Shown: positions 12,371-43,775 of the stretch, one piece after another
Position numbering within the stretch: position 1 is the first letter of the stretch
How the letters are laid out: each line of letters starts with the position of its first letter
Source: an uncultured Nitrososphaerota archaeon
Lineage (GTDB): Archaea; Thermoproteota; Nitrososphaeria; Nitrososphaerales; CADDZS01
Length of the DNA: 64,000 nt
Direction: 5' to 3'
NCBI GenBank assembly: GCA_963799845.1
Contig: CAWCYI010000004.1
Location: 352,001 to 416,000 of the forward strand
Program-made: the position numbers and the translations under genes
The notes under the pieces: model-generated
What the model saw: the letters and a program-made list of their open reading frames with translations, nothing else
What the model was told of the DNA's origin: nothing
Databases searched by the model: none

Positions 12371-14581
12371 CTATTGATTTTTTGAGGAAGATTCGACGGG
12401 TTCCAAATCTCCATGGCTCTTATTTGCTTTTGTCAAGTTTCTAAAGTAGAAGTTTTCAGCATATTCTGTGACCATTCTGCTCGAGCTGAATCTTGGAGTA
12501 AGACTCGACATTGAATGCTTTATCCTGTCTATCCACTTCAAGGGAACACCGTTAGTTCTCTCATAGTATTCCGGAATTACATGGTTTTGCAAGATATCGA
12601 ACAACGACTCGGCATCTTGTCTGTCTTGTAAAATTGGATTTGATGTGTCGGCGCCCGTTCCAATAGCCCACCCATTCGAAGGAGTATAAGCCTCATCCCA
12701 CCAACCATCGAGGATACTCAGGTTGAGCCCGCCGTTGCAGAGGACCTTCATCCCACTGGTTCCAGAAGCTTCCAGAGGTCGCCGCGGATTATTCAGCCAG
12801 AGATCAACTCCCTGAACCATATTTCTAGCGACCGTGATGTCGTAATCTTGCAGAAAAACAATTTTCCCAATCGCCAAATCCCTGTTTGCAAATGAAATAA
12901 TCTCCTGAATTAACTTCTTCCCATCGTGATCTCTGGGATGAGCTTTCCCGGAGAAAACAAACTGCACCGGTCTCTCCTTGTCCAAGAGTAACTGTTCCAG
13001 TCGGGAGTGGTCCGAAAATAACAAGGTCGCCCGTTTGTAAGTGGCAAACCTACGCGCGAATCCAATCGTCAGGGCTTGTTGATTCAAAGAAGGGCGAACG
13101 GTTGGAACTTTCCGGCTGACATATTCCATGAGACGAATCTTTGCTTCAATTCTTGCTTTCCATAGTTTCTCAGCAGGGATTTGTGATATCGGGCGCCACA
13201 CACTCTGCTTCCAAGTTTCGCTCACCCAACTCTTGCCAAGATATTCATCGAGAAGATTTGCCATAGAGTCGGAAATCCACGAAGGTACGTGAACGCCATT
13301 CGTGACCGAGCGCATTCGCGGGCCTGCCCTTGAAGTACCTTTCACCTTGTGGTCTTGATCCTCAAAATCGAAATCCTCCTCCGACAGAACCCTTTCCCAG
13401 AGTTTTCGGGCAACATGCCTGTGCAGGTTTGAAACTCCGTTAATCATCGAGGAGCTTCTGATCGCTAGAACCGCCATGTTGAATCCCGAAGATTCTGGCA
13501 TTTCCTGACCTAGAGAAAATAGGTCATCCATGCTTATCCCTAGTCTTTTTGGATATTGTGAAAGATAATGTTCAATTTGTCCTCGCGTGAAAATATCAAT
13601 TCCAGCTGGCACGGGCGTGTGAGTCGTGAACACACCCGAATTCCTGATAATGGAGCGTGCTTCCGCAAATGATCTCTTAACTTCCTTGTCTTCGAGAACC
13701 TCGGCCATCCTTTCCAGGGCTACAAAACTCGAATGACCTTCATTCATATGATAGACCGAGGGCCTTATGCCGTGCAAACGTAGAAATTTCGCCCCGCCGA
13801 AACCGAGAATTATTTCCTGTTTGATTCTTGTGTCAGTATCTCCTCCGTAAAGCTCTGCTGTGATTTCGCAGTCCTCAGACGAATTCTGACTAGGGATATT
13901 CGTGTCCAAAAGATACAGCGGAATTTTTCCAATTTGAGCTCTCCAAGCTCTTACTTTCACCTCACGATCAGCCAGGGAAACCGAAAAAATAAGAGGGTCT
14001 TCCGAGTCTGACTTCAGGACTGATTCGATTGGAAGCATTGATGGATCATTAGTCGGATAATGCTCCACCTGCCATCCGTCTGAATTGATTACTTGGGAGA
14101 AATACCCCTTCTTGTAGAAGAGTCCGACTCCGACAAGCGGAACACAAAGGTCTGAGGCAGACTTTAGATGATCGCCAGATAGCACGCCGAGCCCCCCGGA
14201 GTATATCTTGAGAAAAGATGCTACTCCAAATTCAGCTGAAAAATATGCGACGAGACCCCCATTCACAGGATCTTCGAACGTTTGCTTAAACCAGCAATTC
14301 GCATTCTCTGACAGATAGTTGTCTTGCAGCGCCGACAGTACTTCCAGCTTTGAAATAAACCCTGAATCGGACTTCAGTTCTTCAAGCCTGGCCGACGAAA
14401 CCGCATTTAGTAACGCCACTGAATTATGATTAGTTTCTTCCCAGAGGACCGGATCAATTGTCTCGAAAAGATTCCTGAGATGCCTATTCCACGTAGAGTA
14501 GAGGTTTGAGGCTAAAAATCCCAGAGCTTCGAGTTCCTTCGGTAATATTGGAATATTGTGAATTTTCTTCGAAGAAATCAA
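12371..14581 (-). CDS. glgP: alpha-glucan (glycogen/maltodextrin) phosphorylase
   Basis: YFSAEFG, YSGGLGVLSGD.LKSASD, HMNEGH, FTTHTPVPAG, ARRFATYKR, EASGTSGMK (PLP lysine). Confidence 0.97.
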   Translation of the reverse strand: MISSKKIHNIPILPKELEALGFLASNLYSTWNRHLRNLFETIDPVLWEETNHNSVALLNAVSSARLEELKSDSGFISKLEVLSALQDNYLSENANCWFKQTFEDPVNGGLVAYFSAEFGVASFLKIYSGGLGVLSGDHLKSASDLCVPLVGVGLFYKKGYFSQVINSDGWQVEHYPTNDPSMLPIESVLKSDSEDPLIFSVSLADREVKVRAWRAQIGKIPLYLLDTNIPSQNSSEDCEITAELYGGDTDTRIKQEIILGFGGAKFLRLHGIRPSVYHMNEGHSSFVALERMAEVLEDKEVKRSFAEARSIIRNSGVFTTHTPVPAGIDIFTRGQIEHYLSQYPKRLGISMDDLFSLGQEMPESSGFNMAVLAIRSSSMINGVSNLHRHVARKLWERVLSEEDFDFEDQDHKVKGTSRAGPRMRSVTNGVHVPSWISDSMANLLDEYLGKSWVSETWKQSVWRPISQIPAEKLWKARIEAKIRLMEYVSRKVPTVRPSLNQQALTIGFARRFATYKRATLLFSDHSRLEQLLLDKERPVQFVFSGKAHPRDHDGKKLIQEIISFANRDLAIGKIVFLQDYDITVARNMVQGVDLWLNNPRRPLEASGTSGMKVLCNGGLNLSILDGWWDEAYTPSNGWAIGTGADTSNPILQDRQDAESLFDILQNHVIPEYYERTNGVPLKWIDRIKHSMSSLTPRFSSSRMVTEYAENFYFRNLTKANKSHGDLEPVESSSKNQ

Positions 14582-15007: not shown

Positions 15008-15271
15008 CTAGAGAGCGTTTATATTGCAGTTTTCATTGATTCATTAAGAAAAAATTTTTCTGCGTTTCACACGCGGGCGTGCTTTTTCACTGAAGAGTGA
15101 CGTTCAAGCTCTGTAAGCTCAGAAGAGCTCGTTTCGAGCTGAATGGAGCTTAGAGAGCTCAGAACGAATTGAACGGAGGCATGAAGAAAGTTGTGACGGA
15201 GAGGGGCCCCTAGGGGAGTTCTGCAACCGTGCACGTGTACTCTGCAGATTGCTTTCTAACAGCTCGTTTCA
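15008..15271 (-). repeat. dispersed modular palindromic repeat, copy 1 (modules A-B-C)
   Basis: Reverse complement aligns to 41653-41728 (~90% by hand) and 41922-42003 (5 mismatches in 82 nt), then more loosely to 42094. Confidence 0.92.
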
Positions 15272-15447
15272 CTTAGTCTGAAGCTCGAACAACCGAGTTC
15301 ATACAACTTGAAATCACCAAGCATCGGAGTGACTTCTATATTTTCATGAAAAAGATCAAGCTCGGCAAAATCTTTGTCATATTTCAGACTTCAGAAATTT
15401 GGTCCAAATGCACGACTTTACTGATTTGCAACTTAGACTATTTTCCG

Positions 15448-16323
15448 TCAGATTATTGAGCTGATTATCATTCCGCCAAAAAGGATGAAGAGATATGGAA
15501 GCGATATCAGAAATGCCCTGAACCCATTATCAACCGTGGGATTTTTCAGCATGCGATAATCAACCACGACGAATGCGGCGCCCATCACTATCGCAACAGC
15601 ATAGTAGAATACATCGAAGGTTCCGAGGGCGTGGATCGCGAGCGGAAGTATCGAGAACACTAGGAGAGGAATAGTTGACCAGACTATCCAGTTGATCACC
15701 TCCTTCTGATTTTTCACGACCGGAAGCATCGGGTATCCGGATCTTACGTAATCATCCTTGAATTTCAAAGACAGCCCCCAGAAGTGTGGGGGCGTCCACA
15801 GGAAAACAAGCAAGCCTATGAATATTGAAGGCCATCCGATGCTGTTTCTTATAGCGGCCCAACCCGCGAGCGCCGGGAATACTCCGGCAATTCCACCGAT
15901 CACGATATTCCAGTACGTTCTCGGTTTTAGATAAAGCGTGTACAGGAAAAGGTAGGAAACACTTCCCAGAAAAATCATCAATGCCGTAACGAAGTTAAAC
16001 AGGAAAAACGCGACGGTGAGCCCTAGGCCTATTGATACTACTCCAAAAATCAGCGCGTTCATGGGGGCAATTCTATTGGTCGCAACTGGACGCTGGTCAG
16101 TCCGGCTCATCAATTTGTCTTTGTTTCTTTCAAGATAGTGATTGAGCGCGGCAGAGCCTCCAGACGACAGAATTCCTGCGACGGTGATTCCTGCTATCGC
16201 ACCGAGCTGGGTCGATCTGCCGCCCGCTACAATCATGGCGGTGATGGCTTCCAGAACTAGAAGCACCATTATGCCGGGCTTCGTCAGCTGAACGTATTTT
16301 GTGATGGTTTCCTGCAGTTGCAT
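15448..16323 (-). CDS. cyoE: protoheme IX farnesyltransferase (heme O synthase)
   Basis: LTKPG, N...E...D..M.RT..RP, YT.YLKPRT.WNIVIGG.AG, WTPPHFW.L, DY...G.PMLP. Confidence 0.95.
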   Translation of the reverse strand: MQLQETITKYVQLTKPGIMVLLVLEAITAMIVAGGRSTQLGAIAGITVAGILSSGGSAALNHYLERNKDKLMSRTDQRPVATNRIAPMNALIFGVVSIGLGLTVAFFLFNFVTALMIFLGSVSYLFLYTLYLKPRTYWNIVIGGIAGVFPALAGWAAIRNSIGWPSIFIGLLVFLWTPPHFWGLSLKFKDDYVRSGYPMLPVVKNQKEVINWIVWSTIPLLVFSILPLAIHALGTFDVFYYAVAIVMGAAFVVVDYRMLKNPTVDNGFRAFLISLPYLFILFGGMIISSII

Positions 16324-17238: not shown

Positions 17239-17264
17239 TTCGACGCACTCAGCTTGAAAAGAGC

Positions 17265-40476: not shown

Positions 40477-40776
40477 CAATTGAGATTCAACACCCTTGTA
40501 TGTATGTGTGACCTTTTGTAAGTTGTAAATTCCCAGGAAAAGGAGATCCCACGAAAAAACGTTTGTCAAATCATCCTTCGTTCCGAATGAATGACGTGCT
40601 TCTGTTCTTCCAGAGATGATCAGACGTCCGTCTTTCCTGCGGAAGGTATAAATTACTGTAACCTTGCAGTAAGGATTCCAAAAATGACAATCAGTCAAGT
40701 GGAAGCGGAAGTTCCGGCAAAAGAAGATGATCGCACTTTTTTTGATACGACTTCAAAAAGTACAATCCCAAGCGCG

Positions 40777-41577
40777 ATGCAACTTAGGAGAAATCCGCCG
40801 GCTAGAAACACTTCGCGCTTTTGGTTCGAGAGATTTCTTACGGTGATCCAAAGACAAAATCCTGCAATAATCGATTCTTCATTCCTCAGCCAGATCGCGC
40901 CCAGCAATGAGGGAAAGCTGCTGTCCCAGCTCAAGTTCCTTGGGGTAGTCGATGATCAGGGAAAGCCAACGAGAGTTCTGCCAATCCTGAATATGGTCGG
41001 AGACGAACAAAGAAAGGCCTTCCTGGAGATCGCGAAGGAATCGTACAAAGATCTTCTTTTGGAGGTCAAAGTAGACAAAGCAGTCCCGGATGATCTCGTC
41101 AATTTTTTTATCAGAAAGTACGCCTTCACCAGAGACAAGGGAATCAACGCCTCAAAATTTTTCCTTTACTTGACAGAGAAGGGTGGAATATCGGTCTCTA
41201 GCGAGCTTGATTCATTTCTATCCGAAAAGGCACCCGTACCGTCGCAACCTGGCAACGGATCGGTTTCTGTCACTAGAATCTCCGAGAAGCAGTCGTCAAG
41301 AATTCATACCAAGGAGTCGAGGCCCTCGACTACATCGAATCGTCAGGCATTGCAACGAAAGATAAAGCCGTCTGAACAGGAGCAGTCTTCGATACAGACC
41401 GTCATCAGCATAAAGCTCGACAAAGATACTCCGAAAGAATACTGGGACAGGGTTCTGGCCTTGATCGGAGAAAGACCGGTTGATGTATCCGTTGAAGCAG
41501 GTCGTAACGATGGACAAGTGGAATCATTTAGCGAGAACCTGGAGCAGGACGCTTCTACGGATTCCGGGTTCACCTGA
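40777..41577 (+). CDS. DUF5343-like protein
   Basis: I...P..ID..FL......N...LL..LKFLG..D..GKPT core recalled as DUF5343, low-complexity linker, short C-terminal domain; start could be 40684. Confidence 0.65.
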   Translation: MQLRRNPPARNTSRFWFERFLTVIQRQNPAIIDSSFLSQIAPSNEGKLLSQLKFLGVVDDQGKPTRVLPILNMVGDEQRKAFLEIAKESYKDLLLEVKVDKAVPDDLVNFFIRKYAFTRDKGINASKFFLYLTEKGGISVSSELDSFLSEKAPVPSQPGNGSVSVTRISEKQSSRIHTKESRPSTTSNRQALQRKIKPSEQEQSSIQTVISIKLDKDTPKEYWDRVLALIGERPVDVSVEAGRNDGQVESFSENLEQDASTDSGFT

Positions 41578-41648
41578 TCTGAGCTCGGCCTTCTCGACTT
41601 TAGCTCCAATTGTTCAATCTTAGCGTACATCCATTTGCCTAGCGGAAG

Positions 41649-42094
41649 AGCTTGAAACGAGCTGATAGAAAGCAATCTGCGGAGTACACACGCACGGTTG
41701 CAGAACTCCCCTTAGGGGGGCCCCTCTCTGTATAATAGCTTGAAACGAGTTTTTCAGTCAAAACGTACGCGCGTGCGTAGAACATAGAGAAAATTCAGTT
41801 CTGCAGTGTAAAGCTCTCGAGCAAAGATCTAGTAAATCGGTTAAAATTTCCGGAACATCCTCGAAAACTCGAAAATCCAATACGAAATGATCAACTCGAG
41901 GATTGTCGGAGAACACTTTTGTGCCTCCGTTCAATTCGTTCTGAGCTCTCTAAGCTCCGTTCAGCTTGAAGCGAGTTCTTCTGAGCTTACAGAGGTTGAA
42001 CGTAGCTCTTCGGCCAAAAAGTGCTCACGTGTGTAGAAACGCAGAAAAAAATTCTATATAAGAATCAATGAAAACTGCGATTTAAGGTCTCGAA
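41649..42094 (+). repeat. dispersed modular palindromic repeat, copy 2 (modules A-C'-spacer-B-C)
   Basis: Inverted homologue of 15008..15271 with a ~190-nt internal insert containing a diverged extra C module; lies between convergent stop codons. Confidence 0.92.
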
Positions 42095-42110
42095 GGGAAC
42101 TCTTAGCGTT

Positions 42111-43775
42111 CTAAGATTCCGCCTTGACGGTGACTGTCACCGGATCTGCCACGGGTTCGACTGTATTATCTTTCTTTGAGATTAACTCGTTTCCGTCCAC
42201 CCACATCATCTTTCGCTGCAATGTGGAGGTGTAAAGCATCTTCCAATCGAGGCCGACCCTGTTCGCCCAGGTCTTGAATACTCTCGGATCAATGTAGTTT
42301 CGAAGAGAAGTATTCAGATTGTAGTCTCTCGTAATCTTCGTTAGCTCGACCTGTTTTTTCATCTTTGCGACCCGCTCGACCAGCTTTGCTTTCTGTTTAT
42401 CGGTCTTACCGTGCATTTGCTCTAATTCCTTCAGTCGTTCCTCCTTCTTTAAGAGAGACTGCTCGAACGTCTTGGGAGGAGTCCTCTTGTGGTTACACTT
42501 TATCGCAGCTTCCAGATTTGCAAGTTTTGCTTGATACAACTTGTCGAAATCCGGAGTATCTTTTTCGAAAGCGTTGTGGTTTTTCAGATAGGATTTGACG
42601 GCGCTCGTGGCGTGATAAGTTCTGAAGACCTTCGCCGTCAGTCCCGGCGAGGCCCTGCTCAGAAACTCGTTGACGTGACGAGACATGATGCCGTCGAAAA
42701 TCAGGTCATCGGGCTTTTTATCCTTACAGAATTGCCTCAAATTTTCAACTGCCGCCCGGTCCTTTGGCTCAATTTCAAGGGTCTTCTGCCACCTGACGTA
42801 GTCTTTGCCGAAAAAGTCGAAATCTACCGCATTTTCCCTGAACTTCAGGTGCTCGACCCTCAGAGTCGAAGCTCCGACAGTGTCAGCCTCGTCTTCGTCT
42901 TTTTCATCTCCGACCCTCATTGCAAGTTTGTCGATGAGGTAGCACGCGGTTGAAATTCTTCTAATCTTTGGATCCTTCGAGCTCATCGACTTCGAGATAA
43001 AGTTCCTAACTCTGTCTATGCCTTTTTCAAGATCCCGGGCTTTGTCGTACTTTCTTTTGTCACGGGCCTGCCTAATGCTGGAGGAATCGTGGAGCCAGAC
43101 GTACTTGACTTTCTCCGACAGCTTGTCTGTCCAACATGCAATCCACATACAATCCGGGGCATTAATGATCTTCCACTTACCGGGAGGGATAACAGCTGTC
43201 TTGTCCAAGTTGAGGGTAATGTCTTCCTCCTGAATTCCAAGTTTCCAGCGCCCTCTCATAGGATGCTGCCCCCGCCCCATGAATAGACCGGGCGGCTCGA
43301 CCACCCAGTTTGCGATTTCTGTCTTCACACCGTCAACCGTCGCATAACCAAATTTCTCCTTTAGTTCGAGTCTCCTCTTCTTACGTTCCGCCGCAAGAGC
43401 CTTCTTTTGTTCTTTCGTAAGCTCGACTTTTTCGGGGAGCGTCGGAAAGATGATGTCAGAAATCTTCGCCTCTTTGAATTTCTCGGGGAAGAGTTTCACG
43501 AAATCTGAGAGAAAATTGGTCTGAAAAATTGGATCTTCGACGTATGGTGTCCCGATCTTCTTGGACCATGCCACCGCCATCTCTTCCTGGGCCGGGGTCA
43601 TGGTCAGAGGCTCTCCCTTGATCGTAATCCGATTAGTGCGTGGGTCAGATCGATAACGTTCTGGAAAGCTCACTCCAGAATGAGACAAGCTGGACCAATG
43701 TTTTTTCTTTAGCTTTGGCTTTTCGTTTTCTTCCTCGTCGGGAGATTCTTCCTCGACTTGCTCAGTTTGGGACAT
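42111..43775 (-). CDS. top1: DNA topoisomerase IB (eukaryote-like)
   Basis: W..L.H.GV.F, EPPGLF.GRG.HP.RG.WK, MRVGDEKD, FDFFGKD, TAKVFRTY.A, CNH, catalytic TSL.NYIDPR. Confidence 0.96.
   Translation of the reverse strand: MSQTEQVEEESPDEEENEKPKLKKKHWSSLSHSGVSFPERYRSDPRTNRITIKGEPLTMTPAQEEMAVAWSKKIGTPYVEDPIFQTNFLSDFVKLFPEKFKEAKISDIIFPTLPEKVELTKEQKKALAAERKKRRLELKEKFGYATVDGVKTEIANWVVEPPGLFMGRGQHPMRGRWKLGIQEEDITLNLDKTAVIPPGKWKIINAPDCMWIACWTDKLSEKVKYVWLHDSSSIRQARDKRKYDKARDLEKGIDRVRNFISKSMSSKDPKIRRISTACYLIDKLAMRVGDEKDEDEADTVGASTLRVEHLKFRENAVDFDFFGKDYVRWQKTLEIEPKDRAAVENLRQFCKDKKPDDLIFDGIMSRHVNEFLSRASPGLTAKVFRTYHATSAVKSYLKNHNAFEKDTPDFDKLYQAKLANLEAAIKCNHKRTPPKTFEQSLLKKEERLKELEQMHGKTDKQKAKLVERVAKMKKQVELTKITRDYNLNTSLRNYIDPRVFKTWANRVGLDWKMLYTSTLQRKMMWVDGNELISKKDNTVEPVADPVTVTVKAES

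Follow-up and report, generated by a model that had tools for sequence, protein, structure and literature searches.

The locus considered here raises the question of what fills the gap between two convergent genes of a Nitrososphaerales soil archaeon, and whether this DNA is to be placed among mobile elements, among RNA genes or among sequences maintained for the benefit of the host. The window, i.e. the whole 64-kb stretch of DNA that was analysed, corresponds to C4:352001-416000 of a 4.6-Mb, 9-contig Nitrososphaerales genome (coded G000), the completeness of which is 86.7%. Two intergenic stretches of this window had been described, in a sequence-only reading, as inverted homologues built from non-coding modules. 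One of them, copy 2, almost wholly fills a 533-nt intergenic gap between a convergent gene pair, and is flanked by the stop codons of the upstream gene (TGA, 41575-41577) and of a topoisomerase gene (42111-42113). The two copies and their neighbouring genes are the following, in window coordinates.

41637-42098, + strand: copy 2 of the repeat family, a full-length member
40591-41577, + strand: gene upstream of copy 2, a 328-aa ORF with a weak DUF5343 match
42111-43775, - strand: gene 3' of copy 2, a eukaryote-type topoisomerase IB (TopoIB)
15009-15300, - strand: copy 1 of the repeat family, a short member
15448-16323, - strand: gene beside copy 1, a UbiA prenyltransferase
12371-14581, - strand: other gene beside copy 1, glycogen-phosphorylase-like

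Homology between the two copies was confirmed by a repeat search of the 64-kb window, in which three adjoining inverted pairs were found: 15069-15181/41922-42034 (113 nt, 87%), 15207-15271/41653-41717 (65 nt, 91%) and 15019-15068/42036-42085 (50 nt, 82%). These arms represent three of the five inverted pairs of at least 30 nt present in the window. Module by module, blastn comparison of the copies gave 88.6% over 79 nt for module A, 93.9% over 82 nt for module B, in agreement with the five differences counted previously, and 77.5% over 80 nt for module C, which had already been considered more diverged. The module orders proposed, A-C'-spacer-B-C in copy 2 and A-B-C in copy 1, were also seen in the alignments, C' being a diverged relative of C. 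As for the extents of the copies, the homology assigned to them holds, but their left ends had been placed too short, since both reach further left into an additional hairpin module, L. In copy 2 this module falls below the threshold used for L (at most 4 mismatches to the consensus GAACTCGGCGTTTCGAGCTC). The modules of the two copies were delimited as follows.

41581-41600, + strand: decayed L hairpin module of copy 2, directly after the upstream TGA; a tentative assignment made by eye against GAACTCGGCGTTTCGAGCTC
41645-41664, + strand: hallmark hairpin motif 1 of copy 2 (GAAGAGCT-TGAAACG-AGCTG), bordering module A on the left
41665-41736, + strand: module A of copy 2, holding the palindromes TGCACGGTTGCA and CCCCTTAGGGGGGCCCC
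41737-41830, + strand: module C' of copy 2, with hairpin motif 2 at 41737-41751 followed by diverged C sequence (11-copy alignment)
41831-41923, + strand: spacer module S of copy 2, a CTCGAAAACTCGAAAATCC direct repeat and then a small hairpin, CTCGAGGATTGTCGGAG
41924-42003, + strand: module B of copy 2, a long imperfect hairpin with hallmark motif 3 (AGCT-TGAAGCG-AGTT) at 41963-41977
42004-42087, + strand: module C of copy 2, delimited in the right-end alignment of 46 copies
15009-15188, - strand: modules B-C of copy 1 (nhmmer match C4:367188-367009, profile positions 281-459, 165.6 bits)
15197-15274, - strand: module A of copy 1 with its leading hairpin motif, GTGAAACGAGCTG (nhmmer match C4:367274-367197, profile positions 18-96)
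15281-15300, - strand: L hairpin module of copy 1, GAACTCGGTTGTTCGAGCTT (pattern match at C4:367281, - strand)

In module C of copy 2, AGCTCTTCGG forms the right arm and is accompanied by a CACGTG box, by GAAACGCAG, by an A/T run that includes TCTATATAAG (42052-42062), by GAATCAATGAAAACT (42062-42076), which is near-invariant, and by GATTTAAGG at the end of the module; 24 nt separate the end of the homology of copy 2 from the stop codon of TopoIB. Spacer S has counterparts with 82-95% identity in a further 12 long copies (blastn and alignment), the C' piece has 11 blastn matches in the genome, itself included, and module B matches itself on both strands in the profile search. A hairpin-like word at position 17250 of the window, carrying 2 mismatches and lying inside an ORF, was attributed to chance and not retained as a family site.

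The possibility that the family consisted of these two copies only was refuted at the genome level. An nhmmer profile of 467 positions, derived from 11 long copies and applied at a cut-off of E 1e-3 or better, produced 106 matches in G000, which were merged into 71 loci after removal of the opposite-strand self-matches of the palindromic module B. These loci range from 29 to 471 nt; ten are full-length (403-468 nt), and the commonest form is B-C alone, of about 165 nt. The right end is reached by 46 loci and the module A part of the profile by 24. Among the 71 loci, 61 do not overlap any ORF of at least 90 aa in a crude greedy ORF set, and the ten others overlap ORFs of 92-368 aa with consistency of neither strand nor frame. 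Sequences outside the family ends are unique, save for three pairs sharing short extensions or a common IS. Three components were missed by the profile: the L module GAACTCGGCGTTTCGAGCTC, with 17 genome sites at up to 4 mismatches; a palindrome module F, CTGTTTCAATTGAACAG, with 19 sites at up to 2 mismatches, 16 of which lie in family loci; and a subfamily X of at least 14 loci, whose alignment, obtained from a loose 3-mismatch seed, was too noisy for defining ends. In all, the family is spread over about 70 intergenic sites, in both orientations, and variation among its members concerns entire modules (L, F, A, C', S, B, C), with repeated copies of the hairpin motif at the joints.

Analysis of the orientation of 49 strong loci relative to their flanking genes gave 16 tandem-same, 14 tandem-antisense, 11 convergent and 8 divergent settings, the background in G000 for gaps of at least 150 nt being 919 tandem, 325 convergent and 504 divergent. 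No orientation bias was found among these 49 loci, which argues against a terminator or a promoter selected for the flanking genes. The start of the L and B hairpins was often located 2-45 nt past a stop codon.

The hallmark common to all subfamilies is a perfect-stem hairpin, AGAGCT-TGAAACG-AGCTCT, whose fullest form, in subfamily X, has a perfect 10-bp stem (CCGAAGAGCT/AGCTCTTCGG). Each full-length copy contains it three times: A and C' both open with it, and B has it at its centre. When up to 1 mismatch is tolerated, the motif GAGCTTGAAACGAGCT can be placed at 72 genomic sites, 58 of them within or close to family loci. Over 21 genomes, the hairpin 19-mer (at most 1 mismatch) was found at 30 sites in G000, 14 in a congener (G003) and 13 in G004, at a single site in each of G005, G006 and G012, and at none in the 15 other relatives; a reversed-pattern control gave 0 sites in all 21 genomes. 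Two versions of the 7-nt loop, TGAAACG and CGTTTCA, are found among the copies, both with the same flanks. A flipped loop was counted in 25 of the 57 G000/G003 copies aligned (module B, pair 333/339), and the two orientations stand at 13 versus 9 in a 22-sequence alignment (A2) and, in G004, at 7 versus 5 when the C-like flank is taken as reference. Larger pieces of B appeared by eye to be inverted in some copies, and TTGAA(A)CG-type words recur in both orientations in the right-end alignment. This pattern is read here as repeated inversion of the loop in place, with the stem arms as its limits; on this reading, what counts is the stem, whichever way the loop points.

The right end of the element is the second constant feature. 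Module C terminates as ...GAAACGCAG-(A)n(T)m-CTTAATGAATCAATGGGAACT-nn-TAWWTRAAG, the copy 2 equivalent being TCTATATAAGAATCAATGAAAACTGCGATTTAAGG. In the 22 copies of alignment A2, GAATCAATG and AACT show little or no variation. Subfamily X and G004 also have a ATGAATCAAT-type motif, and right ends of the TATATGAATCAAT type are common to all three subfamilies (G000, X and G004). On either side of the near-invariant GAATCAATGRRAACT lies an AT-rich, TATA-like box, the two boxes being about 25 nt apart, and the terminal one is, on the opposite strand, close to TTTAWATA. A T-run (T6-7) follows the hairpins in most copies, and an A-run takes its place in TCTATATAAG variants, copy 2 included. In a k-mer position profile, TTAAATA-type words peak 25-45 nt upstream of G000 ORF starts; passages of a report on ammonia-oxidising archaea place TATA/BRE signals 23-24 nt upstream of the ATG (PMC3379541). 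The right end, with its A/T run, TATA-like boxes and GAATCAATG, may represent a portable archaeal promoter or a protein-binding site. Estimation of a promoter matrix by EM from 1,834 upstream regions yielded only a weak T/A motif, and the 9 tRNAs detected in G000 by ARAGORN were too few to serve as a promoter reference. No start codon was found at a fixed distance beyond the C end in 46 copies, and a small ORF driven by this end was rejected on that account; a shared downstream transcript was also rejected, given the uniqueness of the flanks outside the three pairs mentioned above. Of 45 genes located beyond a C end, at distances of 43-680 nt, 21 have the orientation of the element and 24 the opposite one.

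The distribution of the element among genomes was narrow. When copy 2 was compared with 41 related genomes, real matches were restricted to G000 and its congener G003 (18 matches), two further 'matches' being fragments of 33 and 22 nt. Within the genus, the B-C composite occurs in two of seven genomes and the hairpin in three. A search of 185,579 species genomes (one each) for the exact composite pattern returned 9 loci, all in one Nitrososphaerales MAG, and among 35 metagenome loci encoding relatives of the upstream gene, the element was found solely in a G003-type one (82% identity). No similarity to the element was found in the phage, plasmid and viral-contig collections searched. G004 possesses its own composite round the same hairpin, and shares with G000 this hairpin, a GCACGGTTGCG-type box, the A/T run and the TATATGAATCAAT motif. 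The best explanation for these observations is a genus-restricted superfamily built round the perfect-stem hairpin. An unpublished genome lacking matches (G001) was used only for this negative result and for the synteny check. It is worth noting that several G003 contigs stop inside a family copy.

Comparison of orthologous sites provided information on the age of the insertions. Synteny of the DUF5343-like gene with TopoIB is preserved in G003, G004, G002 and G007. At this locus, G003 carries a short element devoid of A, C' and S, in which the first 45 nt of C are almost identical, and G004, G002 and G007 display unrelated, unalignable intergenic DNA. In all, eight G003 copies occupy sites orthologous to G000 copies, with coding flanks 82-86% identical, which indicates that the majority of insertions took place before the two species diverged. 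Whole modules differ at such sites: three of them carry A in G000 but not in G003, an extra F module occurs in G003 at one, C variants are swapped at one and the right end is lost at another. In six orthologous pairs, identity over the final 108 nt of the element amounts to 0.70-0.94, versus 0.59-0.68 for the next 100 nt downstream and 0.58-0.59 for shuffled controls. Identity between orthologous copies (0.68-0.94) only slightly exceeds that of non-orthologous cross-species copies (median 0.83, 56 pairs), so that these data do not separate descent, selection and gene conversion. Since the element is conserved at orthologous sites and the adjacent DNA is near random, its retention would reflect either constraint or homogenisation among copies, and a host function fits this pattern as well as a selfish element does.

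Module A has a history of its own. Its 76-nt core had no match in G003, G004, G001, G002 and G006 (58-87% complete), and none of the 16 G003 loci compared reaches profile positions below 113; in G000, it is present at 24 loci, always embedded within family context. Module A would thus be younger than the rest of the element, and it offers the best evidence for spread within the G000 lineage. It could have arisen by nested insertion aimed at the hairpin motif or by copying between members; alternatively, it could have spread by gene conversion, or have been lost from G003 (61% complete). The GCTTGAAACGAGCT motif copies found on either side of module A showed, by eye, no co-variation within a copy, so that no signature of target duplication accompanies A. 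Neither set of comparisons with G003 gave an empty site: at G003 locus L021 and G000 C6:830324, similarity is lost exactly where the element lies, shortly before the end of the contig, and three further searches with G000 flanks led to one more shared site and two contig ends.

Several explanations for these repeats were weighed against this evidence. That they are ordinary MITEs, IS200/IS605 derivatives (PATEs) with a missed partner, or the products of a decayed local duplication is highly improbable. G000 is IS-rich, with 148 repeated segments of at least 400 nt and families of 18, 11, 9 and 8 copies. It has 17 TnpB-domain matches and two Y1 transposase matches (PF01797), both inside 2.8-kb IS200/605-type elements with TnpB, and the repeats themselves are small, non-coding, multicopy and mostly intergenic, as MITEs are. 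However, no terminal inverted repeats were found in the window, and complementarity between the 46 right ends and the left ends did not exceed about 6 nt by eye; no direct repeat flanked the 46 right ends and the 24 A-bearing left ends, and no conserved tetra- or pentanucleotide was seen at left or right junctions (both by eye). Comparison of 14 IS family representatives with 11 long copies gave only chance words of 12-14 nt (E 0.04-0.65). The 300-nt ends of the IS200/605-type element C4:749685-752504 matched other IS copies and none of the 71 family loci, and the end hairpins of such elements are, by eye, unlike modules L, A, B and C. A classical MITE (neither terminal inverted repeats, target duplications nor an IS with the same ends) and an IS200/605-derived PATE (unrelated ends of the resident element) were rejected on these grounds, and a two-copy duplication is excluded by the 71 loci. 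A REP system driven by a RAYT was rejected as well: four candidate pairs of hairpin sites, in a genome 86.7% complete, bracketed no RAYT-like gene, and the only Y1 genes belong to the IS200/605-type elements. A whole-genome k-mer spacing scan revealed no CRISPR array among its three candidates, of which the one inspected is a coding tandem repeat and the two others have 3 repeats each. The sequence-only reading was therefore right in seeing no ORF, terminal inverted repeats, target duplication or CRISPR likeness, and its MITE-like option fits in size, copy number and non-coding character only, and not in terminal repeats, target-site duplications or a partner IS. Given that no terminal inverted repeat, target duplication or clean empty site was found, transposition itself is a putative process here, and after failure of the MITE, RAYT-REP and IS200/605-derivative tests the family was assigned to no named one. 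Multicopy small ncRNA genes, or 3'-UTR or terminator structures in which the hairpins act as RNA, are also improbable, if less so than a MITE. The + strand of copy 2 folds better than shuffled sequences (z = -3.1, versus -1.7 for the - strand), the L and B hairpins often follow stop codons closely, the T-run after the hairpins is found in most copies, and at predicted stem positions G.T exceeds A.C on the + strand (503 versus 254). However, better-than-shuffle folding is expected of any palindrome-rich DNA, and the G.T excess is biased, since the structure was itself derived by folding the + strand as RNA and few positions dominate. Rfam gave 0 matches over the whole window at gathering thresholds, and over 41500-42200, with E up to 10, only snoZ112 (13.9 bits, E = 6.5, for a gathering score of 40). 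Applied to 22 B-C copies, RNAalifold found 14 pairs, one of them compensatory (covariation term -0.19 kcal/mol), and a separate pair tally over 57 aligned copies showed few double changes; the stems vary little, which leaves this test with low power. The nearly equal numbers of sense and antisense tandem settings, the A-run of the TCTATATAAG variants, the variable orientation of the loop and the several palindromes devoid of a loop also argue against RNA, and the structured ncRNA option received no support.

A role at the level of double-stranded DNA is a more serious alternative, although it is still considered somewhat unlikely. The repeats would in this case be host cis-elements under selection, forming a binding-site array for a lineage-specific DNA-binding protein and possibly a portable BRE/TATA promoter, with an orientation-independent action such as local transcription control, antisense transcription or chromosome organisation. 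Such a role is consistent with retention at the eight orthologous G000/G003 sites amid intergenic DNA at shuffle level, with the loop-less palindromes CTGTTTCAATTGAACAG, CACGTG, CCCCTAGGGG, GGGGCCCC and GAGCTC, which suit dimeric proteins, and with the TTGAA(A)CG-type words in both orientations. A loop that flips freely while its stem is kept, the two TATA-like boxes around GAATCAATGRRAACT, and the TTAAATA peak upstream of ORF starts, together with the TATA/BRE position in ammonia-oxidising archaea, point in the same direction. On the other hand, the occurrence of the composite in two, and of the hairpin in three, of the seven genus genomes means that the element is dispensable for close relatives; downstream genes are co-oriented or opposed in similar numbers with no fixed distance to an ORF start; C variants have been swapped at one orthologous site and the end lost at another; and neither a candidate binding protein nor, by EM, a promoter weight matrix was obtained. 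An explanation combining selection and mobility, which we regard as unlikely, is a domesticated and constrained system: a portable, flip-prone hairpin with a BRE/TATA-like end would have been kept at orthologous sites since the species split, and spread or rewritten by a hairpin-directed mechanism requiring neither terminal repeats nor RAYT (e.g. template switching or an unrecognised recombinase), module A being a second-order parasite or an upgrade targeting the hairpin. Were this true, it would mean that REP/BIME-like regulatory repeats with a propagation of their own, of which no report was found for Nitrososphaerota, exist in this lineage.

From the whole of the analysis, the family is probably a REP/BIME- or BOX-like, non-autonomous mosaic intergenic repeat that has an AT-rich, promoter-like end and acts at the DNA level. 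Among the three interpretations first offered, the REP/BIME-like one was the best fit, on the basis of a perfect-stem hairpin unit, mosaic modules, extragenic location and dozens of copies in one lineage. Modules would be gained, lost and swapped through recombination or template switching at short shared palindromes; another route for module exchange could be insertion targeted to the hairpin. No partner transposase was found. A full-text literature search (main texts) returned no description of a comparable family in Nitrososphaerota, and passages of a 2024 review on prokaryotic MITEs mention few archaeal hosts and none from Nitrososphaerota (PMC10969869). The repeat can be regarded as a marker of a young clade, its composite being present in two species and its hairpin in three, as a natural archive in which hairpin-loop inversions and exchanges of modules are preserved, and as a case of a repeat conserved at orthologous sites amid decaying surroundings. 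On the practical side, such repeats break short-read assemblies and occupy intergenic gaps left blank by annotation.

In bacteria, dispersed palindromic mosaic repeats influence the stability of mRNA, termination, the supply of promoters and the rearrangement of genomes. Comparison with the known systems of this kind, and with small mobile elements, helps to situate the present family. In Correia elements, the terminal inverted repeats measure 26 bp and the target duplication is TA; the archaeal family lacks both features. The two kinds of element are small, multicopy and intergenic, may lie upstream of genes or between them, and have a promoter-like end, the promoter activity of which is putative in the archaeal family; for the Correia/NEMIS elements of Neisseria, described as promoter-carrying MITEs, internal inversion is reported in the relevant passages of the same review (PMC10969869). 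The archaeal MITEs SM1-SM4 of Sulfolobus solfataricus are listed there with 25-44 copies (PMC10969869). They resemble the present family in being archaeal, non-autonomous and present in tens of copies. SM elements arose by deletion and have the same terminal repeats as resident IS elements, whereas none of the 14 IS families compared here has the ends of this family. The ends of IS200/IS605 elements and of PATEs have sub-terminal hairpins, and neither terminal inverted repeats nor target duplication. Hairpins in place of terminal inverted repeats and absence of target duplication are thus shared traits, but the resident IS200/605-type ends differ by eye and match no family locus.

The two remaining systems are closer. 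BOX elements are organised in modules, boxA-boxB(n)-boxC, and a short terminal similarity between boxA and boxC is reported for them. Those of Streptococcus pneumoniae are cited in the review mentioned above (PMC10969869, in part). They are bacterial and unrelated in sequence, and no terminal similarity of the boxA/boxC type was seen in the archaeal family; variable number and order of modules, non-coding and intergenic character, richness in hairpins and no known dedicated transposase are common to both. REP/BIME sequences of Escherichia coli and other Proteobacteria are extragenic palindromes that form mosaics with linkers, often after stop codons. REP systems have a cognate RAYT (Y1 transposase) gene, typically flanked by REPs. 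A description of REP sequences is available (PMC3184786); similarity to them at the sequence level is not expected. The archaeal family differs from them by having no repeat-flanked RAYT, by its perfect stem and flipping loop, and by longer composites (165-560 nt) ending in an AT-rich, TATA-like module. It shares with them a short palindromic unit of extragenic location, repeated dozens of times, which is combined into mosaics, occurs in both orientations, often follows a stop codon closely and is specific to one lineage.

The 4.6-Mb Nitrososphaerales genome (G000) is very IS-rich, with 148 repeated segments of at least 400 nt over the whole genome, and several IS families of 1.0-1.5 kb with clear terminal inverted repeats are present in about 18, 11, 9 and 8 copies. 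Examples of repeated IS segments, all on contig C4, are:

C4:335617-336762
C4:767418-768466
C4:738194-739294
C4:83535-84576

Two IS200/605-type elements were also found; they measure 2.8 kb each, are 93% identical and encode a Y1 TnpA and a TnpB:

C4:749685-752504
C6:728085-730901

One end of these elements (about 260-300 nt) is carried by at least eight further loci, and TnpB-domain matches total 17 in the genome, some of them with internal stops.

A 1.48-kb IS is present in four copies, and two of these are located 34 nt and 139 nt past the right end of a copy of the hairpin-centred intergenic repeat:

C6:780700-782172
C6:236390-237877

The IS and the repeat may occupy these gaps between genes together by chance.

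A second repeat subfamily, X, has the hallmark hairpin (AGAGCT-TGAAACG-AGCTCT) as a perfect version with a 10-bp stem. Further modules, among them the hairpin TTCAGGTCTGCGGGTAC..ACCTGAA, are apparently common to its copies, which include, besides others:

C4:302829, C4:419964, C4:1495838, C4:1714875, C4:1772997, C4:1778522, C4:1890321
C6:617546, C6:1051150, C6:1516600

In the congener G003, one contig (locus L029, G003:C124:1-3300) links, by way of a single repeat copy, the flanks of two sites orthologous to different G000 loci, C4:569013 and C4:1519448; either repeats recombined and so rearranged the genome here, or the assembly is chimeric at this join. A repeat copy also interrupts the assembly at the end of several G003 contigs, which stop inside it. 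Within G000, near-identical segments of 4.5-7.8 kb are common to different contigs, a contig end being reached in two of the three pairs; either overlapping assembly or duplication on a large scale may account for them:

C2:29064-36319 and C3:1-7262
C7:8802-16625 and C8:1-7821
C4:1964976-1969443 and C7:38122-42589

In the 4.6-Mb genome ARAGORN detected only nine tRNA genes, including two whose anticodon loops are odd. Introns that escape the program are probably present in many tRNAs of this genome.

Repeat copy 2 adjoins the following gene, whose product is a typical enzyme of Nitrososphaerota and is thus in keeping with the Nitrososphaerales lineage:

window 42111-43775, (-) strand, eukaryote-type topoisomerase IB (Pfam Topoisom_I_N, Topoisom_I, Topo_C_assoc)

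In a second congener, G002 (locus L011, G002:C163), a gap of 642 nt separates the orthologues of this gene and of its convergent DUF5343-like neighbor, and apparently contains an extra small ORF that is absent from G000 and G003.
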